DNA of 64,000 nt from Clostridia bacterium (GTDB taxonomy: Bacteria; Bacillota; Clostridia; Oscillospirales; CAG-382): positions 26,072 to 90,071 of the forward strand of contig JAFQHL010000045.1 of assembly GCA_017397955.1 (NCBI GenBank), written 5' to 3'. The notes under the pieces were generated by a model, which saw only the letters and a list, made by a program, of their open reading frames with translations, searched no databases and was not told where the DNA came from. The number at the start of each line of letters is the position of its first letter. Within the stretch, counting starts at the first letter, position 1. Both the position numbers and the translations under genes were made by a program. Shown here one piece after another: positions 4,344-45,565 of the stretch.

Positions 4344-5135
4344 ATGAAAACCATTATTATTACCGTAAAAGAAAAAATAGCTACGGCACAAGAGGATGCT
4401 TTTATCGTATGCGGCAACAGCGATATTAAGGCATCCTTTGTTTTTGACGGCGATTGGGATGATGTAGGTACCAAAACTGCGGTTTTTATATGCTCTGACG
4501 GTACTGCATATTATGTAGAGATGGTAGATGACTGCTGCAGCGTGCCCGTGCTTCGTGGTACGTCGTATGTAAAGGTGGGGGTTATATCTTCCGCTGTAGT
4601 TACCAGCACTTCTGCACTTATACCCTGTAAGCCTGCCGTTACCGATGATGCGGAAAATCAAGGAACCATAGGTCAAGACCAATATGAAACTCTTTGCGGC
4701 ATAATTGATAACCGCTTTCCCAAGGGCGGTACACAGGGGGATATCCTTGTAAAACAAAGCGGTGCCGATTACGACACCGGTTGGGAAAGCTCTGCTGACT
4801 ACTGCAAAAAGAATGAGGTGTACACTAAAAACGAGACGATACAATTGCTGTTAAGCAGAGAGCTGAAGCGCGAGATGATTACGCAAGCTTCGGGGCAAGT
4901 TCAGGTGGAGGACAACGCAGACTTTCTGTTAAACGGTGTTAGCTCTTTGTTTTTCATGTGTGATGAATCTTCTAAGTGCAACATTATGCTTACAACCGCT
5001 TCGGAAGGTGACGTATCTGTGACATTCGAGGGCCTTACGGCATACAGCGGTCCGGACCCTGCGGATATGGGTAACGGTGAAACTTGGGAGTTCGACATTC
5101 TTCATGGCAGGTGTATAGGAAGGAAGTGGGCGTGA
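4344..5135 (+). CDS. phage tail-fibre / receptor-binding-like protein
   Basis: 263-aa ORF containing GGTQGDILVKQSGADYDTGWES, a motif I recognise from Firmicute phage tail-fibre proteins. It lies upstream of a lysis cassette. Confidence 0.4.
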   Translation: MKTIIITVKEKIATAQEDAFIVCGNSDIKASFVFDGDWDDVGTKTAVFICSDGTAYYVEMVDDCCSVPVLRGTSYVKVGVISSAVVTSTSALIPCKPAVTDDAENQGTIGQDQYETLCGIIDNRFPKGGTQGDILVKQSGADYDTGWESSADYCKKNEVYTKNETIQLLLSRELKREMITQASGQVQVEDNADFLLNGVSSLFFMCDESSKCNIMLTTASEGDVSVTFEGLTAYSGPDPADMGNGETWEFDILHGRCIGRKWA

Positions 5136-5136
5136 T

Positions 5137-5712
5137 ATGAGCTTGCGACGCAGACTGCTTATGCAGGACTATAGCTTGCCGCAGGCGTATACGGAGCTAA
5201 ACTTTATTAGCTTTGACGGCAACGGCTATTGTCTAACGGATTACTTAATCAAATCCGACGACAGGGTTGAATACCGTTCCAGAGCATCAAAGCTTGTAGA
5301 TAACGGGCTGTTCGGTGTGAATTCCACTGCAGGGGAAAGCTTTTATATTTTTTACGATGGCAGAAACGTTGTGGCGGCACACGGCGAAACAAGTGCTACC
5401 TCAAGTAATTGCATAGTATACACCCCGCGTGATTATATATATCAAAACAGTATGCTTTACGAAGCGGGTAACAACAAAATCACTGCCTTTTCAACTGCTG
5501 CATTCAAAAGCAAACAGCCTATGTATATAGGCGCAATCAACAACGGCGGCACACCCGACTATCCTTTTAACGGTACGGTGTATTATTTTAGGATATACAA
5601 CAACAGCGGTAAACTTTTAAGAAGCTATGTGCCTTGCACAAGAAACAGCGACGGTAAAGCAGGTTTGTTTGAGCTGGTATATCAAAAATTCTGCCCCATA
5701 TTACCTTTATAG
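5137..5712 (+). CDS. phage tail-fibre distal-domain-like hypothetical protein
   Basis: 191 aa, starting 1 nt after the previous stop. The pattern (LPQAYTELNFISFDGNGYCLTDY...FRIYNNSGKLLRSYVPC...GLFELV) resembles jelly-roll tail-fibre tip proteins of gut Firmicute phages. Called by eye only. Confidence 0.35.
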   Translation: MSLRRRLLMQDYSLPQAYTELNFISFDGNGYCLTDYLIKSDDRVEYRSRASKLVDNGLFGVNSTAGESFYIFYDGRNVVAAHGETSATSSNCIVYTPRDYIYQNSMLYEAGNNKITAFSTAAFKSKQPMYIGAINNGGTPDYPFNGTVYYFRIYNNSGKLLRSYVPCTRNSDGKAGLFELVYQKFCPILPL

Positions 5713-5726
5713 GAGGTGAATGGCTT

Positions 5727-6176
5727 TTGAAGAATGAAACGATAAAAACAACGGCCGCTTGTGTTTTTGCAATACTTGGCAGTGTAACCAAACGGCTTGC
5801 TTTGCCCTTTTGCGCCCTTTGCGTTTTAATGGCGGCTGATTATTTTACGGGCCTTATAAAAAGCAAGCAAAACGGCACGGTTTGTTCCCGCACGGGGCTT
5901 AAAGGTATACTCAAAAAGTTGGGATATGTAGCCGCGGTAATAGCGGCGGCGGGCGTGGATTATACGGTGTATTTTGTTTCCGACAGTCTTGGAGAAGGGT
6001 TTGGATTCAAGCCTGTATTTATGCTTTTGCTTATTTTTTGGCTTATCATTAACGAAAGCATAAGCATTCTGGAAAACCTAAGTGCTATGGGTGTGCCCAT
6101 GCCCGACTTTTTGCTTAAAGCTGCAAAAAGCCTTAAGGTAAATGTTGTGAAAAAAGGGGAGAGCAAGGATGAATAA
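5727..6176 (+). CDS. phage holin (holin family 4 / TcdE-like)
   Basis: 149 aa with 3-4 TM segments. Conserved WLIINESISILENLSAMGVPMP motif. TTG start 10 nt after an AGGAGG RBS. Paralogue of 43957-44448. Confidence 0.8.
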   Translation: MKNETIKTTAACVFAILGSVTKRLALPFCALCVLMAADYFTGLIKSKQNGTVCSRTGLKGILKKLGYVAAVIAAAGVDYTVYFVSDSLGEGFGFKPVFMLLLIFWLIINESISILENLSAMGVPMPDFLLKAAKSLKVNVVKKGESKDE

Positions 6177-6927
6177 AAAAACGCATCGCATATATTTATC
6201 GCCCGCAAATCATTATAAGCAATATGCTGTGGCGGGATTTACGGAAAAAGAGCAAATGGATAAGCTGGCGGTATTGCTTGTAAAAGAACTGGAAAAATAC
6301 GAAGGTGCAGAGCCTGTCCTTACAAATATATACGATATTGATAGAAGCTATACGGGCAGACCTGAGGAGGCACAGCGACTAAACTGTGATATTTATGTGG
6401 CACTTCACAGTAATGGTGGCGGTGGCAAAGGAGCTTGCGTGTTTTATCATCCTAAATTTGAGCTTTCCAAAAAGCTTGCTTTGTCGATGGTAAAAGAGCT
6501 TAACGCAATATGCCCCATCAAGAGTAATAGAGCCGTACAGCCCGCTATCTATCCTTGGAGCTATAACGAATGGAATTTCGGAGAGCTGAGGGAGCCTGCA
6601 GGCAATGGAATTGCACCTGTGCTTATCGAGCATGAGTTTCACGACACCGTTGAAGGTGCAACGTGGCTTATCCAAAACATAAAACAAATAGCAAAGGCAG
6701 ATGCTACAGCAATAGCAAACGCCCTTAACCTTAAACGAAAACCTATGCTTGGTGACATAAATGGTGATGGGGAAGTTAACAGCCTTGATGCGGTAGCAAT
6801 ACTGCGTTGCGATGCAGGAATAGTTCAGCTTGACGAAACACAAAAAGCCACCGCCGATATAAACGGCGATGGCAAGGTAAATAGCCTTGATGCTGTGGCG
6901 ATATTAAAGATGGATGCCCTAAAATAA
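6169..6927 (+). CDS. N-acetylmuramoyl-L-alanine amidase endolysin with C-terminal dockerin repeats
   Basis: 252 aa. Amidase_3-like core (IYLSPANH...DIYVALHSNGGGGKGACVFYH...LIEHEFHD), then two dockerin segments (DINGDGEVNSLDAVAILRCDAG, DINGDGKVNSLDAVAILKMDA). The start overlaps the holin stop. Confidence 0.8.
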   Translation: MNKKTHRIYLSPANHYKQYAVAGFTEKEQMDKLAVLLVKELEKYEGAEPVLTNIYDIDRSYTGRPEEAQRLNCDIYVALHSNGGGGKGACVFYHPKFELSKKLALSMVKELNAICPIKSNRAVQPAIYPWSYNEWNFGELREPAGNGIAPVLIEHEFHDTVEGATWLIQNIKQIAKADATAIANALNLKRKPMLGDINGDGEVNSLDAVAILRCDAGIVQLDETQKATADINGDGKVNSLDAVAILKMDALK

Positions 6928-6946: not shown

Positions 6947-6979
6947 AAAGCCCCAAGACCTTATCGTTCTTGGGGCTTT
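6947..6979. terminator. hairpin terminator abutting the tRNA-fragment core
   Basis: AAAGCCCCAAGA / TCTTGGGGCTTT 12-bp stem with an 8-9-nt loop. Confidence 0.6.
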
Positions 6980-7001
6980 GGAGCTGGTAGTGGGATTTGA
7001 A
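6979..7001. repeat. att core copy 1 (attL of the intact prophage, right end of the remnant)
   Basis: TGGAGCTGGTAGTGGGATTTGAA is identical to 45491-45513, which is the 3' end of tRNA-Thr read on the minus strand. The two copies diverge immediately after the 23-mer. Confidence 0.85.
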
Positions 7002-7104
7002 TAATACTCTTTTTGTTTTTTGCGTAAAAATAGCGCATTTTCATACGTTTCTGTTTCTCGTTTAGCAAAAATTGTACAACTATATTTGCCGTTTTAATAA
7101 CGTA

Positions 7105-7128
7105 TAAAGGGTAAAATAAAGGGTAAAA
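7105..7128 (+). repeat. tandem 12-nt direct repeat TAAAGGGTAAAA x2 (candidate integrase arm-type site)
   Basis: Two perfect tandem copies. The same TAAAGGGTA motif with the same 12-nt spacing recurs at 45413-45436, near the other prophage end. Confidence 0.5.
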
Positions 7129-7180
7129 CTTGAATAATAGATTTTCGTGTTTGGCTGTAGATGATACAACTATTACAAAA

Positions 7181-7744
7181 TCAACTGTTGCTCTGGTTTG
7201 CTAAAGCGTTCAATTCCTCCCACTTTTGAAAAATTCTTTTCAAGTGGTAATTTGTGACTTCCTTTTTAATTTGTAATAGTGTTTTGTTTAGTTTGTAGTC
7301 AGGGATTATATCAGCGTTTTTACAGATGTCGTATATAGAATTTGCTTTTAAATTTGATGAACAAAAACAATTGTGATCCTCAAGTGAGCATTTTATGCAT
7401 TTTATGAAGTCTAATGATAAATTTTTATATTGAGCCAACGCAGGAGAACTGCCTCTTTTTGTTTCAAACTTTGCAATCAAGTTGGAACATATAATGTTAA
7501 CATCACATTTGCATTTTAAGAACAGCCGGGTCCCCTCGTTGAAACTCGTCGTTTCTGAACGTATTATTGTATCATTAAATATAGATATAATTTCTTTTAG
7601 CTTCTCAAAAGTAGTAACAACGAAATATTTGTTCTTGTTTAGTTTCTTTATCAGTGGTGGAATATACTTGATCGCTAATGGTGTTATAGCAATAATCAAA
7701 CACAGCAAATTATATAAGGTGAAAGTTTGCCCACTGGTTTCCAT
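7181..7744 (-). CDS. hypothetical membrane-anchored Cys-rich protein (prophage cargo)
   Basis: Start taken at M11 (AGGAG RBS 8 nt upstream). N-terminal TM helix (FTLYNLLCLIIAITPLAIKYIPPLI) followed by a Cys-rich soluble part. Lies in the AT-rich segment. No family recognised. Confidence 0.5.
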   Translation of the reverse strand: METSGQTFTLYNLLCLIIAITPLAIKYIPPLIKKLNKNKYFVVTTFEKLKEIISIFNDTIIRSETTSFNEGTRLFLKCKCDVNIICSNLIAKFETKRGSSPALAQYKNLSLDFIKCIKCSLEDHNCFCSSNLKANSIYDICKNADIIPDYKLNKTLLQIKKEVTNYHLKRIFQKWEELNALANQSNS

Positions 7745-8149
7745 AAAAACATCTCCTGTTAACGATTTTGGCAATATAACGCTTGTCTATAATATTGCAT
7801 ATGTCGTTTCAAATGTCAATAATTTTTTTCGCATTTCAAGAATTTTGTTGAAACGTTTCCTTTTATGCTGTGCTGTGCAAAAAAATGTTTTTTTGTGTAA
7901 AATAATTAAATTGCGTTATGTAAGTGGTGTTAATAACATCTCTTGCGTATACAGGAGCTATGGTACATAAAAATAATTAAAGATAATATGATATAGAGAG
8001 CATTTGGTAAAAGTTAATAGTGAATATTATGAAAAAAACGCAAAACATCATACATTTGAAAAGGAGATTATATGAAGATACTTGAATTGTTCATAAAATC
8101 GTGTTATACTACACATGGAAGGATACACGGAAAGAAAGGAGAGGTTTCA

Positions 8150-8590
8150 ATGAATGCAATTAGTTTATCGAATTATGTTATTATTCAATTTGAAAACAAA
8201 GGAGTTCCTATTACCAATTTGAAGTTGCAAAAAGTGATCTATTACATTCAAGGGTATTTTTATAGGCAATTTAACAGACCTGCATTTTTAGAAGAAATAT
8301 ATAATTGGCAATATGGTCCCGTTGTCCCCGAAGTGTATTATGAGTATAATACCAACGGTTCATCTGCTTTGAAGCCTCAATTATCATGCACGGACTTTTC
8401 AATTGAAGAATGTGAAAAAAAGCTAGTATACTCTATAGTAGAAAAATGTTCTGACATTTCCACTTCAAATTTGGTCTCTATGACACATTCAGAAAACCCA
8501 TGGAAAAACTCTAATCCTGGCGGTATTATCAGCAAAAAGAGCATCGAATTGTTTTTTAAATTTAATGATCCGTTGAGGATAAAAGCATGA
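8150..8590 (+). CDS. Panacea (DUF4065 / SocA / GepA-like) domain protein, putative PanA antitoxin
   Basis: Core motif NLKLQKVIYYIQGYFYRQFNRPAFLEEIYNWQYGPVVPEVY. ATG 8150 follows an AAGGAGAG RBS and gives a typical family N-terminus. The track start at 8072 is an alternative. Confidence 0.7.
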   Translation: MNAISLSNYVIIQFENKGVPITNLKLQKVIYYIQGYFYRQFNRPAFLEEIYNWQYGPVVPEVYYEYNTNGSSALKPQLSCTDFSIEECEKKLVYSIVEKCSDISTSNLVSMTHSENPWKNSNPGGIISKKSIELFFKFNDPLRIKA

Positions 8591-9354
8591 CTGTCTTAAT
8601 AACACTTTTGAATGAAATAGTAACGGATATTGATTTTCATGGGGCTATTGAAGATAGCGATGAAGAGAATGTGCGGATAAAAGCAGATGCTTACTTTAAA
8701 CGGTTTAAAGAGGTATACGAGAGTATTGGCAGGCATAGATATTCAGATGTTTCAAAATATATCGATACCTTGCAACAAGATGCCGTTGATTCGCTTCGTG
8801 AAGGCCTTGACGAAATAATTCGTGTTGCCAAAGATAATCAGTATTGTGATGACCAAGAAGACCCCACCAACAATGTTTGTTTTATGAAAGTCGCCAAACT
8901 GTATGACCATGTAGAGCTTGAATCCATAAGATACACAAGTATAAAGAAAATACAATGTGTGGCCGATGCAAATAGCAAACATGAAGAGGAAGTAATTAAG
9001 TTGTTTGACGATGCTGAAAAAGCAGTTAGTGAAGCCCACGAGCAAGCAAAGCATTTATCACAGCAACTTATCTCCATACTCGGTATATTTGCCGGTATTA
9101 TTGTGACTTTTTCGTTTGCGACAGCCACAGTTGGTGAGACAATTGCTAATTTGGCTAAGAACGATGTTGTGTATCTAGGATTTGTGATAGCTGTATTAGG
9201 TACGGTGTTTATAAATGTGTTGGCAATTTTATTTTCTTTCGTAGCCAAATTGTCAGGGCATAAATTATCTAAACCTTTTCCTTGGGTAGTATATATTGTT
9301 GGCAATTTGGTGACCGTTGTTATGGCAATAGCTTTATTCTCTAAAATGAGTTAA
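8587..9354 (+). CDS. uncharacterised protein with a helical N-terminal region and three C-terminal TM helices; putative membrane-acting toxin/effector partner
   Basis: ATGA start/stop overlap with the Panacea gene. 255 aa. C-terminal hydrophobic helices ISILGIFAGIIVTFSFATA, VVYLGFVIAVLGTVFINVLAILFSFV and WVVYIVGNLVTVVMAIALF. The N-terminal domain could not be assigned. Confidence 0.5.
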   Translation: MTVLITLLNEIVTDIDFHGAIEDSDEENVRIKADAYFKRFKEVYESIGRHRYSDVSKYIDTLQQDAVDSLREGLDEIIRVAKDNQYCDDQEDPTNNVCFMKVAKLYDHVELESIRYTSIKKIQCVADANSKHEEEVIKLFDDAEKAVSEAHEQAKHLSQQLISILGIFAGIIVTFSFATATVGETIANLAKNDVVYLGFVIAVLGTVFINVLAILFSFVAKLSGHKLSKPFPWVVYIVGNLVTVVMAIALFSKMS

Positions 9355-9401
9355 GTAAACTTGTGTGGCTCTATAATTTATTGAGGTCGGTTTGTAAAAT
9401 T

Positions 9402-9438
9402 AAAAACGTTGAATTCGTGAAAAGGTTCAACGTTTTTT
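9402..9438. terminator. bidirectional intrinsic terminator between the cargo operon and int
   Basis: AAAAACGTTGAA / TTCAACGTTTTT 12-bp stem with A/T runs on both sides. Confidence 0.65.
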
Positions 9439-9480
9439 CTTGGTGATTATGTAATTTGTACCATGTAAAACGTGGATTCT

Positions 9481-10629
9481 TTATCCGTACAAATTGGATA
9501 TATATAAATCCATTCGTTTGGCGCTTTCTTGTTTCATTTCCTCGGTAATGTGTCCGTATACATCAAGCGTAAATGCCGCAGAATGATGCCCCATGTTTTC
9601 CTGTACTGTTTTTATATCATCGCCGGCAACTAAAGAGGCGACCGCATAACTGTGGCGAAGGTCGTGCAATCGCTTTTCAGGTAGCCCCATCTTGGCAACG
9701 ATGCGTTTGTAGTTGTGGTAAAGCGTATTAGGGGGAATATACTTCCCGAACTCATTCGTAAAAACAAGGTTGTCTACATCTATAGGTTCCCATAGCTCGG
9801 CGGCAACGGTCTTTTCTATGATTTGTTTGCGCTTTTCTTCGGCAAGTGCCTGCATAACCAACGCTGCAGGTGTTATGGTTCGGGTCTTGTTGTTCTTAAG
9901 CGGTGCAAAGTAACGGGTGGTTCCACGCTTCTGCAATTGATGCTTAACTAAGATTTGCCCTTTTTCAAAGTCTACGCAGTCCCAGGTAAGCCCCAACAGT
10001 TCACCTTCCCTCATACCGGTGAACAAGGCTACAATGTATAACCGTTCGTATTTATGTCCCTTTATTGCCAGCAGGAATTCTTTTATCTGCTTGCTGTCTA
10101 AAGGCTTTATCTCTGCCTTAGGTGCTTTAGGCAAGCTAACATTGTCTGCAGGGTTAGTGCGTATATACCCAATGGCGACCGCTTGCTTTAATGCACTGTG
10201 CAGTATGCCGTTCAGGTTCTTTATGGACTTAGGGGAGAGGGAGTCTAATTTTTGATTATAAAACCTCTGCACCATCGGTACCGTCAAAGCCGTTAGTTTT
10301 ACTTTGCCAAGCCCCGGCTTGAGGTGTACGCGTATGTTTATTTCGTAGGCTCTTCGGGTGTAAGGCTTAATGCTGTTGTTGTATTCAGCAAGCCAAACAT
10401 CAAGCCATTCACCTACCGTAATGTCACAAGGGTCTTTGTATATCCCTTCATCCAGCTCGGTACTGACCTTGGCAAGCTTTTTGCGCACCTCCGCTTGCGT
10501 TTTGCCGTATATGGACCGCTGCACTTGCTTACCTGTCCCCGGGTCACGCCCTACGGTATACCGTGCTTCCCAGGTTCCGTCTGCGCGTTGACGGATGCTG
10601 CCTGCGCCCTGCGCTGCTCTTTTTGCCAT
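9481..10629 (-). CDS. int: phage tyrosine integrase with N-terminal arm-binding domain
   Basis: Start at M19 (AAGGAGG RBS). The N-terminus GSIRQRADGTWEARYTVGRDPGTGKQVQRSIYGKTQAEVRKKL looks like an AP2-like arm-binding domain. The C-terminal catalytic region reads HDLRHSYAVASLVAG...GHHSAAFTLDVYGH. Confidence 0.9.
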   Translation of the reverse strand: MAKRAAQGAGSIRQRADGTWEARYTVGRDPGTGKQVQRSIYGKTQAEVRKKLAKVSTELDEGIYKDPCDITVGEWLDVWLAEYNNSIKPYTRRAYEINIRVHLKPGLGKVKLTALTVPMVQRFYNQKLDSLSPKSIKNLNGILHSALKQAVAIGYIRTNPADNVSLPKAPKAEIKPLDSKQIKEFLLAIKGHKYERLYIVALFTGMREGELLGLTWDCVDFEKGQILVKHQLQKRGTTRYFAPLKNNKTRTITPAALVMQALAEEKRKQIIEKTVAAELWEPIDVDNLVFTNEFGKYIPPNTLYHNYKRIVAKMGLPEKRLHDLRHSYAVASLVAGDDIKTVQENMGHHSAAFTLDVYGHITEEMKQESAKRMDLYISNLYG

Positions 10630-10722
10630 AATAACCTCCTTAAAACTGTTGACTTTTAGAAGGAGGTAGTGTAAAATAGACACACGACCCCCTAAGTGTT
10701 TCTCGATGCTTTTGTGGTCCTT

Positions 10723-10775: not shown

Positions 10776-11195
10776 CTATTTGGTAAATTTAAAATCTGTT
10801 TCTGCTTTCTCTAAGCGGTTCTTATCAGAGAGAGCTTCTGAAAATTTAATTTTGTCAGTCTTGGTGTTTAACATAAGACCTATGGTATTTATTCGATCAA
10901 ATAATGCATACATCACGAAAGAGCTAAATACTAATAGCGCAGCGCTTAACAAAAAGGAAATGAATAAGATGGTTTTGCTTGAACTTGCTGCACTTAATAT
11001 AAAAATTACGCTTATTATGCCTTCCAACATTCCTAAAACTGCGAATACCCAAGGTAATTTGCTGGGTTTGTAAAAAGTGTAAGAGTCTTCTCTTGGGTGA
11101 CAGATATTGTGCGCAATTGTGCAACCGCAATTAGGACAAAAAACGGCTTTGTCTGATACATCGTGGTTACATTCGGGGCATTTAATTAGAGCCAT
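10776..11195 (-). CDS. zinc-ribbon membrane protein (candidate superinfection-exclusion / lysogeny-expressed moron)
   Basis: Start at M10 (GGGAGG RBS 5 nt upstream). Begins MALIKCPECNHDVSDKAVFCPNCGC, followed by two TM helices. Located 13 nt downstream of the repressor stop on the same strand. Confidence 0.55.
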   Translation of the reverse strand: MALIKCPECNHDVSDKAVFCPNCGCTIAHNICHPREDSYTFYKPSKLPWVFAVLGMLEGIISVIFILSAASSSKTILFISFLLSAALLVFSSFVMYALFDRINTIGLMLNTKTDKIKFSEALSDKNRLEKAETDFKFTK

Positions 11196-11208
11196 AAAAA
11201 CCTCCCAC

Positions 11209-11874
11209 TTATCTAACATCACTTTGAAAGGCTATAGCCCTTCCTAATATTTTAACTTCGTTCAATTCATCGCCCATATATACCAAGGGCGGGTATTTTG
11301 TGTTTTCGGCTACGAGGAGGAGCTTGCCCTGCTCGGGGTAGAAGAAAACACGCTTAAGCAGTGCATCATCGCCAATGATTACGGCGGCAACTGTACCGTT
11401 CTCTACCACATCGCATTTTTCTATAAATACAATATCACCGTCATAAATACGGGCGTTTATCATACTGTCGCCTTTAGCTTTAAGGCAAAAGTCAGCTTTT
11501 ACATTAACGCCTGCTGCCACATAGGATTGTCTGTCCTCCGAGGCAAATACCGGCTCTCCGCAGGATATCTCACCGAGGAGAGGGATGTTTTTTACTGTTA
11601 TTGGCATGATGCCAAAGCTTTCTTCTGATAATCTTGTCTTTGGAACATCATATCCCATAAGCCAAACTTCCGGAACATCAAGAGCCAAACTCAAAAGAGA
11701 CAGTTTGAACTGCCCGGGAGTAACTTTACCCGAAACATATTGGCTTAGGTCATTTTTGTTAAGTTTTGTGCCTGCACTCTTAAAGTGGGGTTCTGCAAGC
11801 CTTAGTATATCTGTTTGTTTTAATCCTCGTTCGTGCATCAGTTGTTTTAGTCGCTCGGAAGTAGTAGTTTTCAT
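11209..11874 (-). CDS. CI/LexA-like phage repressor (XRE HTH + S24 peptidase)
   Basis: N-terminal HTH (ERLKQLMHERGLKQTDILRLAEP). The C-terminal S24 domain contains GDSM (Ser nucleophile), a Lys in LLKRV, and a candidate A-G self-cleavage site (VAAGVN). Start taken at M16. Confidence 0.85.
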   Translation of the reverse strand: MKTTTSERLKQLMHERGLKQTDILRLAEPHFKSAGTKLNKNDLSQYVSGKVTPGQFKLSLLSLALDVPEVWLMGYDVPKTRLSEESFGIMPITVKNIPLLGEISCGEPVFASEDRQSYVAAGVNVKADFCLKAKGDSMINARIYDGDIVFIEKCDVVENGTVAAVIIGDDALLKRVFFYPEQGKLLLVAENTKYPPLVYMGDELNEVKILGRAIAFQSDVR

Positions 11875-11911
11875 AGTATATACCGCTCCTTTGTTTGCAT
11901 TATAACGCATT

Positions 11912-12021
11912 TTGAACAAAAGTTCAAGAGGAAAAAGAAAAATAATTCAATTTTTTTGAACTTTAAGTATTGACAAACTCAAAAAAACATGATATTGTAA
12001 AAATGTTCAAAGTCGTTGAAC
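11912..12021. promoter_or_regulatory. genetic-switch region with TTGAAC/GTTCAA operator-like sites
   Basis: TTGAAC-AAAA-GTTCAA at 11912-11927, a TTGAAC half-site at 11956-11961, and GTTCAA-AGTCG-TTGAAC at 12005-12021. All lie between the divergent repressor and cro-like genes. Confidence 0.55.
11970..11998 (+). promoter_or_regulatory. early rightward promoter (TTGACA-17 nt-TATTGT, TG-extended)
   Basis: TTGACA at 11970-11975, TG at 11990-11991, TATTGT at 11993-11998. Flanked by the operator-like sites. Confidence 0.6.
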
Positions 12022-43941: not shown

Positions 43942-43956
43942 AAGGGAGTGCATAGT

Positions 43957-44448
43957 ATGAAAACAAATCTTACAAAATTTACACTTTCGGTGGCATTTGC
44001 CTCCATAGGCAGTATGTGCAAGGAGCTTGCGGTTCCGTTTGTTGTGCTGTGCGTATTGATGCTTGCCGATTACATTACCGGCATGGTTAAAAGTTGGCAG
44101 TTGGGCACTTTGTGTTCTCGCACCGGTATAAAAGGCTTTATAAAAAAACTTTGCTACGGGCTCGCGGTTGTAGCGGCAATAGGCATTGACTATGTAATAG
44201 TAATAGCATCCTCAAAACTTGGCTACGATATCGGCATACAGCCTTTCTTTGGCTGGCTTTGCACTGCTTGGCTTATTATTAACGAATGCATCAGCATACT
44301 CGAAAATTTAAGTGCTATGGGTGTACCTATGCCGGCCTTTCTTGTAAAGGCGGCAAAGAAACTTAAGAATAACGTAGAAAGCGCAGCTGATAACGCAAAA
44401 GAAAGCGACGAAAACAAGGAGAGGGAAAATGAAAACAAAAGACTATAA
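43957..44448 (+). CDS. phage holin (holin family 4 / TcdE-like)
   Basis: ATG 43957 follows an AAAGGGAG RBS. Contains WLIINECISILENLSAMGVPMP. Paralogue of 5727-6176. Confidence 0.8.
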   Translation: MKTNLTKFTLSVAFASIGSMCKELAVPFVVLCVLMLADYITGMVKSWQLGTLCSRTGIKGFIKKLCYGLAVVAAIGIDYVIVIASSKLGYDIGIQPFFGWLCTAWLIINECISILENLSAMGVPMPAFLVKAAKKLKNNVESAADNAKESDENKERENENKRL

Positions 44449-45187
44449 AATATACATATCGCCTGCAAACCATTACAAGCAGTACGCTATACCCGGTTAT
44501 AACGAAAAGCAGCAAATGGACCTGCTTGCACCTAAGCTTGTAGAAGCTTTAAAAAAATACGAGGGCGTTACACCCATACCCGCCACTGTGTTTGCGCTCA
44601 GCCGTGATTACCAGGGCAGGCCGGAAGAAGCCCAAAAAATGGGATGTGATATCTACACAGCACTTCATAGCAACGGCGGCGGCGGCAAAGGTGCTTGCCT
44701 TTACTATCACCCAAAATACGAGCTTTCCAAAAAGCTTGCTCTCAGTATTGTTGCCGAGCTTAACGCAATATGCCCCATCAAGAGTAATAGAGCCGTACAG
44801 CCCGCTATTTATCCTTGGAGTTATAATGAATGGAATTTTGGCGAAGTGAGGGAGCCGGCGAACAAAGGTATTGTACCGGTGCTTATAGAACACGAATTTC
44901 ACGACACCGTTGAAGGCGCACAGTGGATAATAGACAACCTGGACGCAATTGCCGAAGCGGACGCCCGTGCCATCGCCGCTGCTTTAGGCCTTAAGCTTAA
45001 AGAAGTGCCCGGCGATGTAAACGGGGATGGTGAAGCAAACAGCCTCGACGCGGCGCAGATTCTCAAGCAAGACGCAGGGCTTGCATCTTTCACAGAAGAG
45101 CAACTTGCCGCCGCCGATGTAAACGGCGACGGCATGGTAAACAGCCTCGACGCCGCACAGATACTCAAGCACGACGCTGGGCTTTAA
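44429..45187 (+). CDS. N-acetylmuramoyl-L-alanine amidase endolysin with C-terminal dockerin repeats
   Basis: 252 aa, collinear with 6169-6927. Dockerin segments DVNGDGEANSLDAAQILKQDAG and DVNGDGMVNSLDAAQILKHDAG. Confidence 0.8.
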   Translation: MKTKDYKIYISPANHYKQYAIPGYNEKQQMDLLAPKLVEALKKYEGVTPIPATVFALSRDYQGRPEEAQKMGCDIYTALHSNGGGGKGACLYYHPKYELSKKLALSIVAELNAICPIKSNRAVQPAIYPWSYNEWNFGEVREPANKGIVPVLIEHEFHDTVEGAQWIIDNLDAIAEADARAIAAALGLKLKEVPGDVNGDGEANSLDAAQILKQDAGLASFTEEQLAAADVNGDGMVNSLDAAQILKHDAGL

Positions 45188-45490: not shown

Positions 45491-45513
45491 TGGAGCTGGT
45501 AGTGGGATTTGAA
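45491..45513. repeat. att core copy 2 (attR), identical to 6979-7001
   Basis: An exact 23-nt match that forms the T-arm and acceptor 3' end of the tRNA. Confidence 0.85.
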
Positions 45514-45565
45514 CCCACGGCCTATTGATTACGAATCAATTGCGCTACCCCTGCGCCATACCAGC
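45491..45565 (-). tRNA. tRNA-Thr (anticodon CGU)
   Basis: The reverse complement folds as a cloverleaf: acceptor GCTGGTA/TACCAGC, D stem GCGC/GCGC, anticodon stem ATTGA/TCAAT with loop TTCGTAA, T stem GTGGG/CCCAC with loop TTCAAAT. CCA is encoded. Confidence 0.9.

Follow-up and report, generated by a model that had tools for sequence, protein, structure and literature searches.

Two overlapping genes carried by a prophage in the window (the whole stretch of 64,000 nucleotides analysed here) probably form a PanAT type II toxin–antitoxin operon, in which a stand-alone Panacea antitoxin, PanA, is followed by a divergent membrane toxin of the T4 cluster, PanT, that would act as does its validated relative from Helicobacter (Kurata et al., 2022; PMC8832971; see also below). 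The pair, otherwise one of "hypothetical proteins", is now placed in a published and experimentally anchored class of toxin–antitoxin systems, and it reveals no new kind of system. The features discussed below are the following (window coordinates):

6979-7001, left prophage end: attL core, TGGAGCTGGTAGTGGGATTTGAA, a 23-bp direct repeat of attR
8062..8066, plus strand: Shine-Dalgarno sequence AGGAG, 5 nt upstream of the long-form panA ATG
8072..8590, plus strand: panA, putative stand-alone Panacea (DUF4065) antitoxin, 172 aa
8137..8152, plus strand: internal AGGAG (8137-8141) and ATG (8150-8152), conserved
8575..8590, plus strand: coupling signal, GAGGA (8575-8579) inside the 3′ end of panA, then ATGA
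8587..9354, plus strand: panT, candidate T4-type membrane toxin, 255 aa
8587..9066, plus strand: acidic helical cytoplasmic domain of PanT, aa 1-160
9067..9135, plus strand: TM1, aa 161-183
9175..9246, plus strand: TM2, aa 197-220
9286..9342, plus strand: TM3, aa 234-252
9402-9445, no strand assigned: 14-bp hairpin flanked by an A run and a T run, between panT and the convergent int
9481-10683, minus strand: integrase gene int (PF00589)
43948-44448: prophage holin gene (PF05105)
45491-45513: attR, at the 3′ end of tRNA-Thr
45491-45565, minus strand: tRNA-Thr(cgt)

Prophage setting and layout of the operon

The prophage looks complete; its attL is an exact copy of positions 45491-45513 over all 23 bp (BLAST, E 4.7e-5), and panA and panT occupy the moron slot between attL and int. 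This segment had been described as AT-rich from inspection of the letters, and the composition bears this out, with a GC content of 0.327 (32.7%) over the attL–int island (7002-9480) as against 0.441 (44.1%) in the remaining prophage and 0.46 in the flanks. Both the moron slot and the foreign composition of the island are in keeping with a module selected for abortive infection or superinfection exclusion, in which PanA would sense the phage and release PanT, which would collapse the membrane potential before the invader finishes its cycle; we regard this role as a serious possibility, short of probable (see also below).

On the circular genome of the phage, the two genes come right after those for holin and endolysin, with attP in between, and two relatives (L014 and L017) are likewise found after a lysis cassette. 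This position would suit an accessory of lysis timing, that is, a pinholin-like depolariser and its inhibitor, used in the lytic cycle and not in the lysogen. Pinholins depolarise the membrane without large pores, which the activity of the T4 toxin resembles (see below), and the two conserved starts of panA recall the dual starts of holin/antiholin genes. However, the prophage already encodes a holin of its own, of canonical type (PF05105), as well as an amidase, attP separates the pair from the lysis genes, from which it also differs in base composition, neither protein matched a holin family in Pfam or PHROGs, and many relatives are distant from lysis genes or outside phages; a function in lysis timing is very improbable.

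The hairpin between panT and int is plausibly a bidirectional terminator. A consensus terminator scan missed it because only three pairs of the stem are G-C, the rest being A-U or G-U, and because the T run lies partly inside the stem. A promoter scan returned 21 promoter-like sites for 12.5 ± 3.1 expected and is uninformative in such AT-rich DNA, and a repeat scan of the region upstream of the module gave no convincing operator. An ORF at 7181-7774 was considered as a third component and dismissed, being missing from every other PanAT locus; it had no homologues in Pfam, PADLOC, PHROGs, NCBIfam or the other libraries searched.

The DUF4065 core that the sequence-only reading had attributed to the upstream gene was recovered by an HMM search with PF13274 (E 9.8e-18; 65.6 bits for a gathering cut-off of 25.7; E 1.4e-17 in a second scan), and the protein carries the GPV motif, as WQYGPVVPEVY, and matches phrog_1281. 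The gene had been drawn at 8150-8590; the stop end stands, but the start is most likely ATG 8072, and the extra 26 N-terminal residues (MKILELFIKSCY...) are kept as protein in homologues. The internal ATG at 8150-8152 may be a second start, giving a PanA of 146 aa formed by the core only, and an internal Shine-Dalgarno sequence with an ATG or TTG is likewise present in loci L007, L008 and L009. In the AlphaFold2 model (pLDDT 87.7, pTM 0.84), an N-terminal helix (residues 2-21) and a flexible basic linker precede the Panacea core (about 29-165). The helix shows only moderate amphipathicity, with a muH of 0.5-0.7 that does not exceed the values in other parts of PanA, and for this reason a membrane anchor is not claimed. 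Neither a Foldseek search of the PDB with the model nor a profile search of PDB sequences gave a match. PanA has no DNA-binding domain that would account for autoregulation, a point that counts against the toxin–antitoxin reading.

The overlap between the stop of panA and the start of panT, also claimed before, is seen directly in the letters: the TGA of the former and the ATG of the latter share ATGA at 8587-8590, with GAGGA 7 nt upstream of the panT ATG, and the overlap is retained in loci L007-L010 and L013. Such a classical type II operon layout, with translational coupling, would also befit an addiction element, in which loss or deletion of the prophage end removes a labile PanA, the persisting PanT kills and the prophage is thus kept. 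PanAT pairs near transposons and prophages have been suggested as possible addiction modules (Kurata et al., PMC8832971). However, other PanAs neutralise their toxins independently of ClpXP or Lon, so that a labile antitoxin is not established, and degraded copies of the module (see below) indicate that a lineage can survive its loss. We consider a role in addiction rather unlikely.

PanT and its relationship to the T4 cluster

An acidic helical region followed by three C-terminal hydrophobic helices had been recognized in the product of the downstream gene, and the AlphaFold2 model, the charge and the hydropathy agree on this arrangement. Residues 1-160 (net charge -15, pI 4.7) form helices throughout in the model, with a pLDDT >90 across residues 1-110; this domain lacks a signal sequence, and the positive-inside rule is obeyed by the basic loop at 221-233. 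A long helix (residues 93-187) continues from the N-terminal domain into TM1, where the best-conserved stretch of the family, LISILGIFAGIIVTFSF, is located, and a conserved basic cytoplasmic loop, KLSGHKLSK, directly follows TM2. Two motifs of the family, RHRYS (aa 49-53) and KLYDHVELE (aa 104-112), lie in the N-terminal domain, and Arg49, His50, Asp107 and His108 are invariant.

PanT matched phrog_5763 (E 2.4e-18) and had no significant match in Pfam, NCBIfam or PADLOC. Three sub-threshold candidates were rejected: DUF2207_C, which is Pfam noise (E 0.043), and the NCBIfam equivalogs for L-idonate 5-dehydrogenase (E 0.001; 17.9 bits for a cut-off of 469) and for the DUF1249 family. The CvpA/colicin V production family was also set aside, the Pfam scan having given only the sub-threshold DUF2207_C; one homologue (P0021) is called CvpA in its NCBI name, which we deem a mis-naming. 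A Foldseek search of the PDB with the PanT model came back empty at E<=0.001, and the rows for CorA, Cog2p and designed bundles are helical-bundle noise; in BFVD, Foldseek found only uncharacterised phage proteins (best E 1.3e-3); a profile search of PDB sequences found nothing.

The effector had been taken for the product of an unassignable, uncharacterised membrane-protein family, a view that has to be given up: PanT is a distant yet clear homologue of the PanT cluster T4 (PMC8832971, Dataset S1). A tblastn search against phages identified a prophage of Helicobacter rodentium ATCC 700285 (E 4e-15), in which the toxin gene overlaps an upstream PF13274 gene by 20 nt. This pair is WP_084310206.1/WP_026943962.1, as confirmed by exact cluster look-up of the accession, and its entry in Dataset S1 (PMC8832971) reads "T4, A|T, -20"; the H. 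rodentium toxin and WP_104731349.1, from H. rappini, are both in cluster T4 (Kurata et al., 2022; PMC8832971). BLASTP with PanT retrieved the two proteins at E 5e-22 and E 2.5e-17, respectively, and hhalign of the PanT family against the H. rodentium protein gave a probability of 99.35% (E 6e-21) over 187 columns. An HMM derived solely from proteins related to the H. rodentium toxin scored PanT at 123.9 bits, whereas 400 shuffled sequences reached at most 4.5 bits. The motifs RHxYS, KLxDHIxLE and ILGIF are common to the PanT family and the H. rodentium toxin, and the T4 architecture, a helical N-terminal region with C-terminal transmembrane helices, is found in PanT both in the AlphaFold2 model and by hydropathy. 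PanT is no more than 25-27% identical to the verified T4 members.

The T4 member with a phenotype is PanT(Hel. sp.), WP_095295403.1, a toxin that its own PanA neutralises; it stops all three macromolecular syntheses and causes strong depolarisation without uptake of SYTOX Green or the formation of large pores (PMC8832971). The link of the present protein to WP_095295403.1 rests on the clustering made by the authors of that study together with the homology to the two other T4 members. A protein of our set, P0116, was considered as the validated toxin itself and discarded, as it comes from an unrelated MAG, and toxFtsL(D9) was discarded as a relative because this toxin, the other large one of the membrane type that is paired with PanA, is GAF domain-based; the T4 accessions are absent from the text of the NetFlax supplement.

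A benign PanT, acting in its own host as a channel, a transporter accessory or a surface-exclusion factor, with the Panacea protein as its regulator or chaperone, has also to be weighed. A T4 member from a phage region of Clostridioides difficile, WP_074138355.1, was non-toxic in Escherichia coli, eight PanTs were non-toxic in the same study (PMC8832971), and a large, well-folded and highly conserved cytoplasmic domain with four invariant residues would suit a regulated function. However, the single T4 member for which a phenotype has been seen is a potent toxin, which acts by depolarisation and which PanA neutralises, the strict pairing with PanA in very distant relatives (see below) is the signature of a toxin unable to stand alone, and the one PanA-less copy is 5′-truncated. 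We hold it doubtful that PanT is benign.

The family is large. PanT has 45 close homologues, and a profile search returned 1778 representative clusters (at 50% identity) at E<=1e-3 and 913 at E<=1e-10, nearly all of 240-350 aa and aligned over most of their length. Among 136 distant representatives, KLxDHxxL was present in 132, an ILGIF-like motif in 110 and an RHxYS-like motif in 107, and the first transmembrane segment begins at residue 157 (median). Thus, the T4 toxin family, at about 1800 clusters, greatly exceeds the published list, and none of Pfam, NCBIfam and PADLOC has a model of it; the three motifs and the topology could seed one.

Conservation of the pair and its neighbourhoods

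A test of whether the two genes are neighbours in other genomes had been suggested, and its outcome is positive. Among the relative loci sampled, 17 distinct ones have a toxin gene of full length and DNA upstream of it, and in every one of these a Panacea (PF13274) gene immediately precedes the toxin gene (a PanA gene is directly upstream in L007-L010, L012-L019, L021, L022 and L025-L033), and the antitoxin-first order and the two-gene neighbourhood, the criterion used by FlaGs, recur across divergent genomes. Moreover, the identities of PanA and PanT co-vary (Mantel rho 0.64), none of 2000 permutations reaching the observed value. The pair is more than a chance association; PanT has 45 close homologues and 1778 representative clusters (see above). 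Of the earlier view of a toxin–antitoxin or abortive-infection pair with a new membrane effector, the conserved and co-inherited module of toxin–antitoxin type stands and the novelty of the effector family does not.

The flanks of the relative loci are unrelated to each other and include the lysis end of phages, the region before the terminase (L025-L027), the side of an S24 repressor (L028-L030) and, in L031-L033, chromosomal metabolic genes; in L008 the pair adjoins an IS200-like transposase ORF, a neighbour that would fit an addiction element. Two degraded copies, one pseudogenised (L012) and one truncated at its 5′ end (L011), the latter being the sole copy without PanA, are those that speak against addiction. 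The relatives in accessory positions of phages and prophages (L014, L017, L025-L027 and L028-L030) favour a role in abortive infection, and those amid chromosomal metabolic genes count against it. Panacea has been hypothesised to be a sensor, and RosmerTA, whose toxin depolarises the membrane, defends against phages (PMC10440598). However, neither protein matched PADLOC-DB v2 (0 families at E<=0.1), and no report of anti-phage activity by any PanAT pair was found in the literature searched.

Proposed mechanism and comparison with known systems

The steps proposed here for the PanAT operon are modelled on PanT(Hel. sp.), the validated relative, and on the architecture of the two proteins. PanT would be inserted via its three transmembrane helices with the N terminus in the cytoplasm and the C terminus outside, and it probably oligomerises via the long stalk helix entering TM1. 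Free PanT would let the membrane potential dissipate by way of a small path for ions, not a large pore, and the loss of the potential would shut down transcription, translation and replication. PanA would bind directly to the cytoplasmic part of PanT and keep it inactive, as do other stand-alone Panacea antitoxins, and loss or inactivation of PanA would release the toxin. That a stand-alone Panacea protein neutralises another membrane PanT by contacting the region ahead of its transmembrane segments is known from mutagenesis (PMC10440598). The most likely roles of the operon would be prophage-borne abortive infection or superinfection exclusion, or else the stabilisation of the element.

A bolder reading, which we think unlikely to be correct, has the T4 PanTs as a very large family of gated small-ion channels clamped by PanA, with two PanA isoforms, made from the two conserved starts, in Clostridia. 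The RHxYS and KLxDHxxLE domain would control a pore formed by the ILGIF segment of TM1 via a CorA-like stalk helix, and the long PanA N-terminal helix would place PanA at the membrane or at the toxin. Were it true, prophage-encoded abortive infection would have a tunable trigger.

The closest known system is PanA-PanT(Hel. sp.) of Helicobacter sp. 13S00482-2 (WP_095295401.1/WP_095295403.1), in which the gene for a stand-alone Panacea antitoxin also comes first and that for the toxin is adjacent or overlapping (PMC8832971). The two toxins are alike in their size of about 250-300 aa, their helical or coiled-coil cytoplasmic N-terminal region and their C-terminal transmembrane helices. Among the differences, the Clostridia subfamily is compact (254-255 aa) and has exactly three transmembrane helices; its PanA has an N-terminal helix of 26 aa, which is conserved, and an internal second start, neither of which is present in the epsilonproteobacterial PanAs; and the pair described here is prophage cargo, whereas the validated pair is classed as "NotPhage" (PMC8832971). 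A three-helix representative of 255 aa, from a prophage of gut or rumen Clostridia, is well suited to a study of how Panacea silences a depolariser. In PanA-PanT(D11/T12) of Bartonella choladocola (formerly B. apis) and in PanT(Esc. col., T3), a membrane toxin is likewise neutralised directly by a stand-alone Panacea protein, and in that group the contact site is the cytoplasmic segment ahead of the transmembrane region (PMC10440598). These toxins, unlike T4, are small peptides that form large, SYTOX-positive pores (PMC8832971), and no search related either of them to the present PanT in sequence.

The antitoxin of SocA-SocB, a type VI system of Caulobacter, shares the Panacea/SocA domain (PF13274) with PanA. 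There, SocA serves ClpXP as the adaptor for a toxin that binds DnaN. An identification of the pair with SocAB was rejected: PanA scored 64.1 bits with the NCBIfam SocA equivalog NF047745, for a cut-off of 190, and its partner is a protein with three transmembrane helices.

Finally, PanT and the CorA-type channels are alike in gross architecture, with a cytoplasmic N-terminal domain and a stalk helix continuous with TM1, which is a functional analogy at most. A CorA channel was rejected for PanT, with non-significant Foldseek E values of 0.3-0.7, a TM-score of about 0.2, no GMN motif and three transmembrane helices, not two. CorA rows head the Foldseek PDB list, and one T4 member bears the CDD label "MIT_CorA-like" in the published table (PMC8832971, Dataset S1).

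A Panacea gene coupled to a membrane-protein gene beside int

The window carries a complete-looking prophage whose extent (~6979-45513) follows from its ends: the 3'-terminal 23 bp of a tRNA-Thr gene (45491-45513) are repeated exactly at 6979-7001 (E 4.7e-5), the copies representing attR and attL, respectively. Genes for a gpA-type large terminase, a lambda-family portal, major capsid protein E and a tape measure protein lie to the right of the repressor. The landmarks are:

9481-10683, minus strand: integrase (int), PF00589 and SAM-like domains, left end of the prophage
11209-11919: S24 repressor, left end of the prophage
43948-44448: holin of the resident prophage
44429-45187: amidase-dockerin endolysin of the resident prophage
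45491-45565, minus strand: tRNA-Thr(cgt)

Between the integrase and the repressor, at 10776-11222 (minus strand), a gene that overlaps the end of the repressor gene encodes a small zinc-ribbon protein with hydrophobic C-terminal segments.

The segment between attL and int, described as AT-rich in the sequence-only reading, is indeed a 2.5-kb island of 32.7% GC, as compared to 44.1% for the rest of the prophage and 46% for the flanks. It encodes three ORFs, an orphan (7181-7774, minus strand), ORF1 (panA; 8072-8590) and ORF2 (panT; 8587-9354), and a hairpin of 14 bp, with runs of A and T, lies 3' of ORF2 and faces the convergent int gene. The orphan product (197 aa, one N-terminal TM helix) had no match in Pfam, PHROGs, PADLOC, NCBIfam or a phage tblastn search. 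It was found only in copies of the same prophage (L001, L003-L006), and was rejected as part of the PanAT unit because it is missing from every other PanAT locus.

A PF13274 search bore out the Panacea (DUF4065) identity proposed for ORF1 (E ~1e-17; 65 bits, with the gathering threshold at 25.7); the conserved GPV motif is present, and AlphaFold2 modelled the protein with confidence (pLDDT 87.7, pTM 0.84). ORF1 matched no solved structure by sequence or by fold, in agreement with the literature, in which Panacea has no solved relative. Its start, previously placed at 8150, is most probably the ATG at 8072, since the additional 26 N-terminal residues (MKILELFIKSCY...) are conserved at the protein level in homologues with 45-74% identity and a Shine-Dalgarno AGGAG precedes this ATG (8062-8074). 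An internal AGGAG and ATG (8137-8152) are also conserved in loci L007-L009, so that panA has two Shine-Dalgarno and start pairs, both conserved there, for products of 172 and 146 aa; two isoforms of the antitoxin are thus possible. Public gene calls are divided between these two lengths.

The TGA of ORF1 shares positions 8587-8590 with the ATG of ORF2, which is the ATGA overlap originally reported, with GAGGA 7 nt ahead of the ORF2 start codon. The AlphaFold2 model and hydropathy also confirmed the described layout of the 255-aa product, an acidic helical region followed by three hydrophobic helices (residues 161-183, 197-220 and 234-252). Residues 1-160 are entirely helical (net charge -15, pI 4.7), with pLDDT >90 for residues 1-110, and a long helix (residues 93-187) runs into the first hydrophobic helix. 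Because a basic loop, KLSGHKLSK, separates TM2 from TM3 and a signal peptide is absent, we infer from the positive-inside rule that the N terminus is inside and the C terminus outside. The stalk-into-TM1 architecture and weak Foldseek rows suggest an analogy to CorA-like channels, which fails as homology.

Homology of ORF2 to the T4 toxins

Nothing significant was found for ORF2 in Pfam, NCBIfam or PADLOC; it matches phrog_5763 (unknown function; E 2.4e-18). A word-indexed search returned 45 close homologues, all of ~254 aa, from Clostridia, Lachnospiraceae and Oscillospiraceae MAGs and metagenomes. One homologue of 59% identity (P0021, MBE6598559.1; L009 6001-6765) is named 'CvpA family protein' by NCBI, a name for which the Pfam scan of ORF2 gives no support. 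An exhaustive profile search extended the family to 1778 representative clusters at E<=1e-3 (913 at E<=1e-10), nearly all of 240-350 aa and matched over most of their length. Three motifs recur among 136 distant representatives, whose first TM helix has its median start at residue 157:

KLxDHxxL(E): 132/136
RHxYS-like: 107/136
ILGIF-like, at the start of TM1: 110/136

Among GenBank phages, tblastn with ORF2 matched a prophage of Helicobacter rodentium ATCC 700285 (E 4e-15), which encodes a 144-aa PF13274 protein and a 294-aa protein from genes overlapping by 20 nt. This pair (WP_084310206.1/WP_026943962.1) is listed by Kurata et al. 2022, in their Dataset S1, under toxin cluster T4, with order A|T and spacing -20 (PMC8832971). 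An exact-sequence cluster look-up confirmed the toxin accession and turned up another T4 protein on that list, H. rappini WP_104731349.1. The effector had been regarded as unassignable and its family as uncharacterised; this view no longer stands, since ORF2 is homologous to both T4 members (BLASTP E 5e-22 and 2.5e-17, respectively). In hhalign, the ORF2 family aligned with the H. rodentium toxin over 187 columns (99.35%, E 6e-21). In the reverse direction, an HMM whose training set was limited to 112 relatives of the H. rodentium toxin scored ORF2 at 123.9 bits, against 4.5 bits for the best of 400 composition-matched shuffles, and six proteins (P0116, P0117, P0146, P0153, P0163, P0164) were common to both searches. 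Homology to T4 is solid in both directions.

Pairing of panA and panT across loci

Whether the two genes are neighbours in other genomes had been proposed as a check. In every sampled relative whose toxin gene is full-length and has DNA ahead of it, the gene directly upstream encodes a PF13274 protein (L007-L010, L012-L019, the H. rodentium prophage, a Mu-like relative and the loci named next). The pair precedes the terminase in a Peptostreptococcus phage region, sits beside an S24 repressor in a Campylobacter concisus prophage and, in a chromosomal relative, lies among metabolic genes; as the flanking genes are unrelated between loci, panA and panT travel as one unit. Pairwise identities of PanA and PanT co-vary (Spearman 0.64; reached by 0/2000 Mantel permutations). 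The sole copy without PanA is L011, with a 5'-truncated toxin gene.

Decay is seen at two loci: in L011 (3492-4121), residues 76-254 of PanT are joined to a new N terminus and panA is not upstream, and in L012 (4297-5441) both genes are frameshifted. Where the window's PanA has a short helix, a distant PanA that partners a T4-like toxin (L014, 5204-5872) has a strongly hydrophobic, TM-like N-terminal segment (MLMYKIGIIILNFYVIICIIHLL), which hints at membrane tethering of some PanAs in this clade.

Proposed action and role

The domain identities, the operon layout with its translational coupling, the conservation of the pairing and the homology to the T4 superfamily mark the pair as a newly recognised, divergent PanAT with a putative T4-type toxin; the kind of system is already known. 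Cluster T4 includes PanT(Hel. sp.) (WP_095295403.1), which is toxic in E. coli, is neutralised by its cognate PanA, and blocks transcription, translation and replication at once; it strongly depolarises the membrane without SYTOX Green uptake, unlike the other two validated membrane PanTs, which form large pores (PMC8832971). The T4 protein encoded in a phage region of C. difficile, however, showed no toxicity in E. coli (PMC8832971). ORF2 shares the architecture of PanT(Hel. sp.), in which C-terminal TM helices follow an N-terminal coiled-coil-like region (PMC8832971). Direct neutralisation by a stand-alone Panacea domain, through binding to the cytoplasmic segment before the TM region, is described for a different membrane PanT and is supported by Y56A and H120E mutants (PMC10440598). 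Neutralisation by other PanAs did not require ClpXP or Lon. In the action we propose, PanT would insert N-in and oligomerise; PanA would bind its acidic cytoplasmic domain or stalk, keeping the toxin inactive, and PanT free of PanA would conduct small ions and collapse the proton-motive force.

Genomic context favours a moron with a role in defence or competition; the pair may act in abortive infection or exclusion, in prophage addiction, or in both. Against an anti-phage role, neither protein matches any PADLOC model, and no report of anti-phage activity by a PanAT pair was found in the literature searched. Control of lysis timing is unlikely, because the prophage already has its own holin and endolysin, from which the pair differs in base composition. 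The modest additions made here are the size of the unannotated T4 superfamily with its three motifs, a compact three-TM Clostridia PanT subfamily and, in the PanA that goes with it, a conserved N-terminal helix and two start sites.

Remains of a second, related prophage lie left of attL (4344-6927), with two tail-fibre-like ORFs, a holin (PF05105) and an amidase-dockerin endolysin; the DNA at 6038-6893 is 68.7% identical to the resident holin/endolysin region (44268-45153), implying that one tRNA-Thr attachment site was used in succession. Both endolysins (6169-6927 and 44429-45187) join an Amidase_3 catalytic domain to a C-terminal type I dockerin (PF00404, E ~1e-13), an unusual choice of endolysin targeting module.
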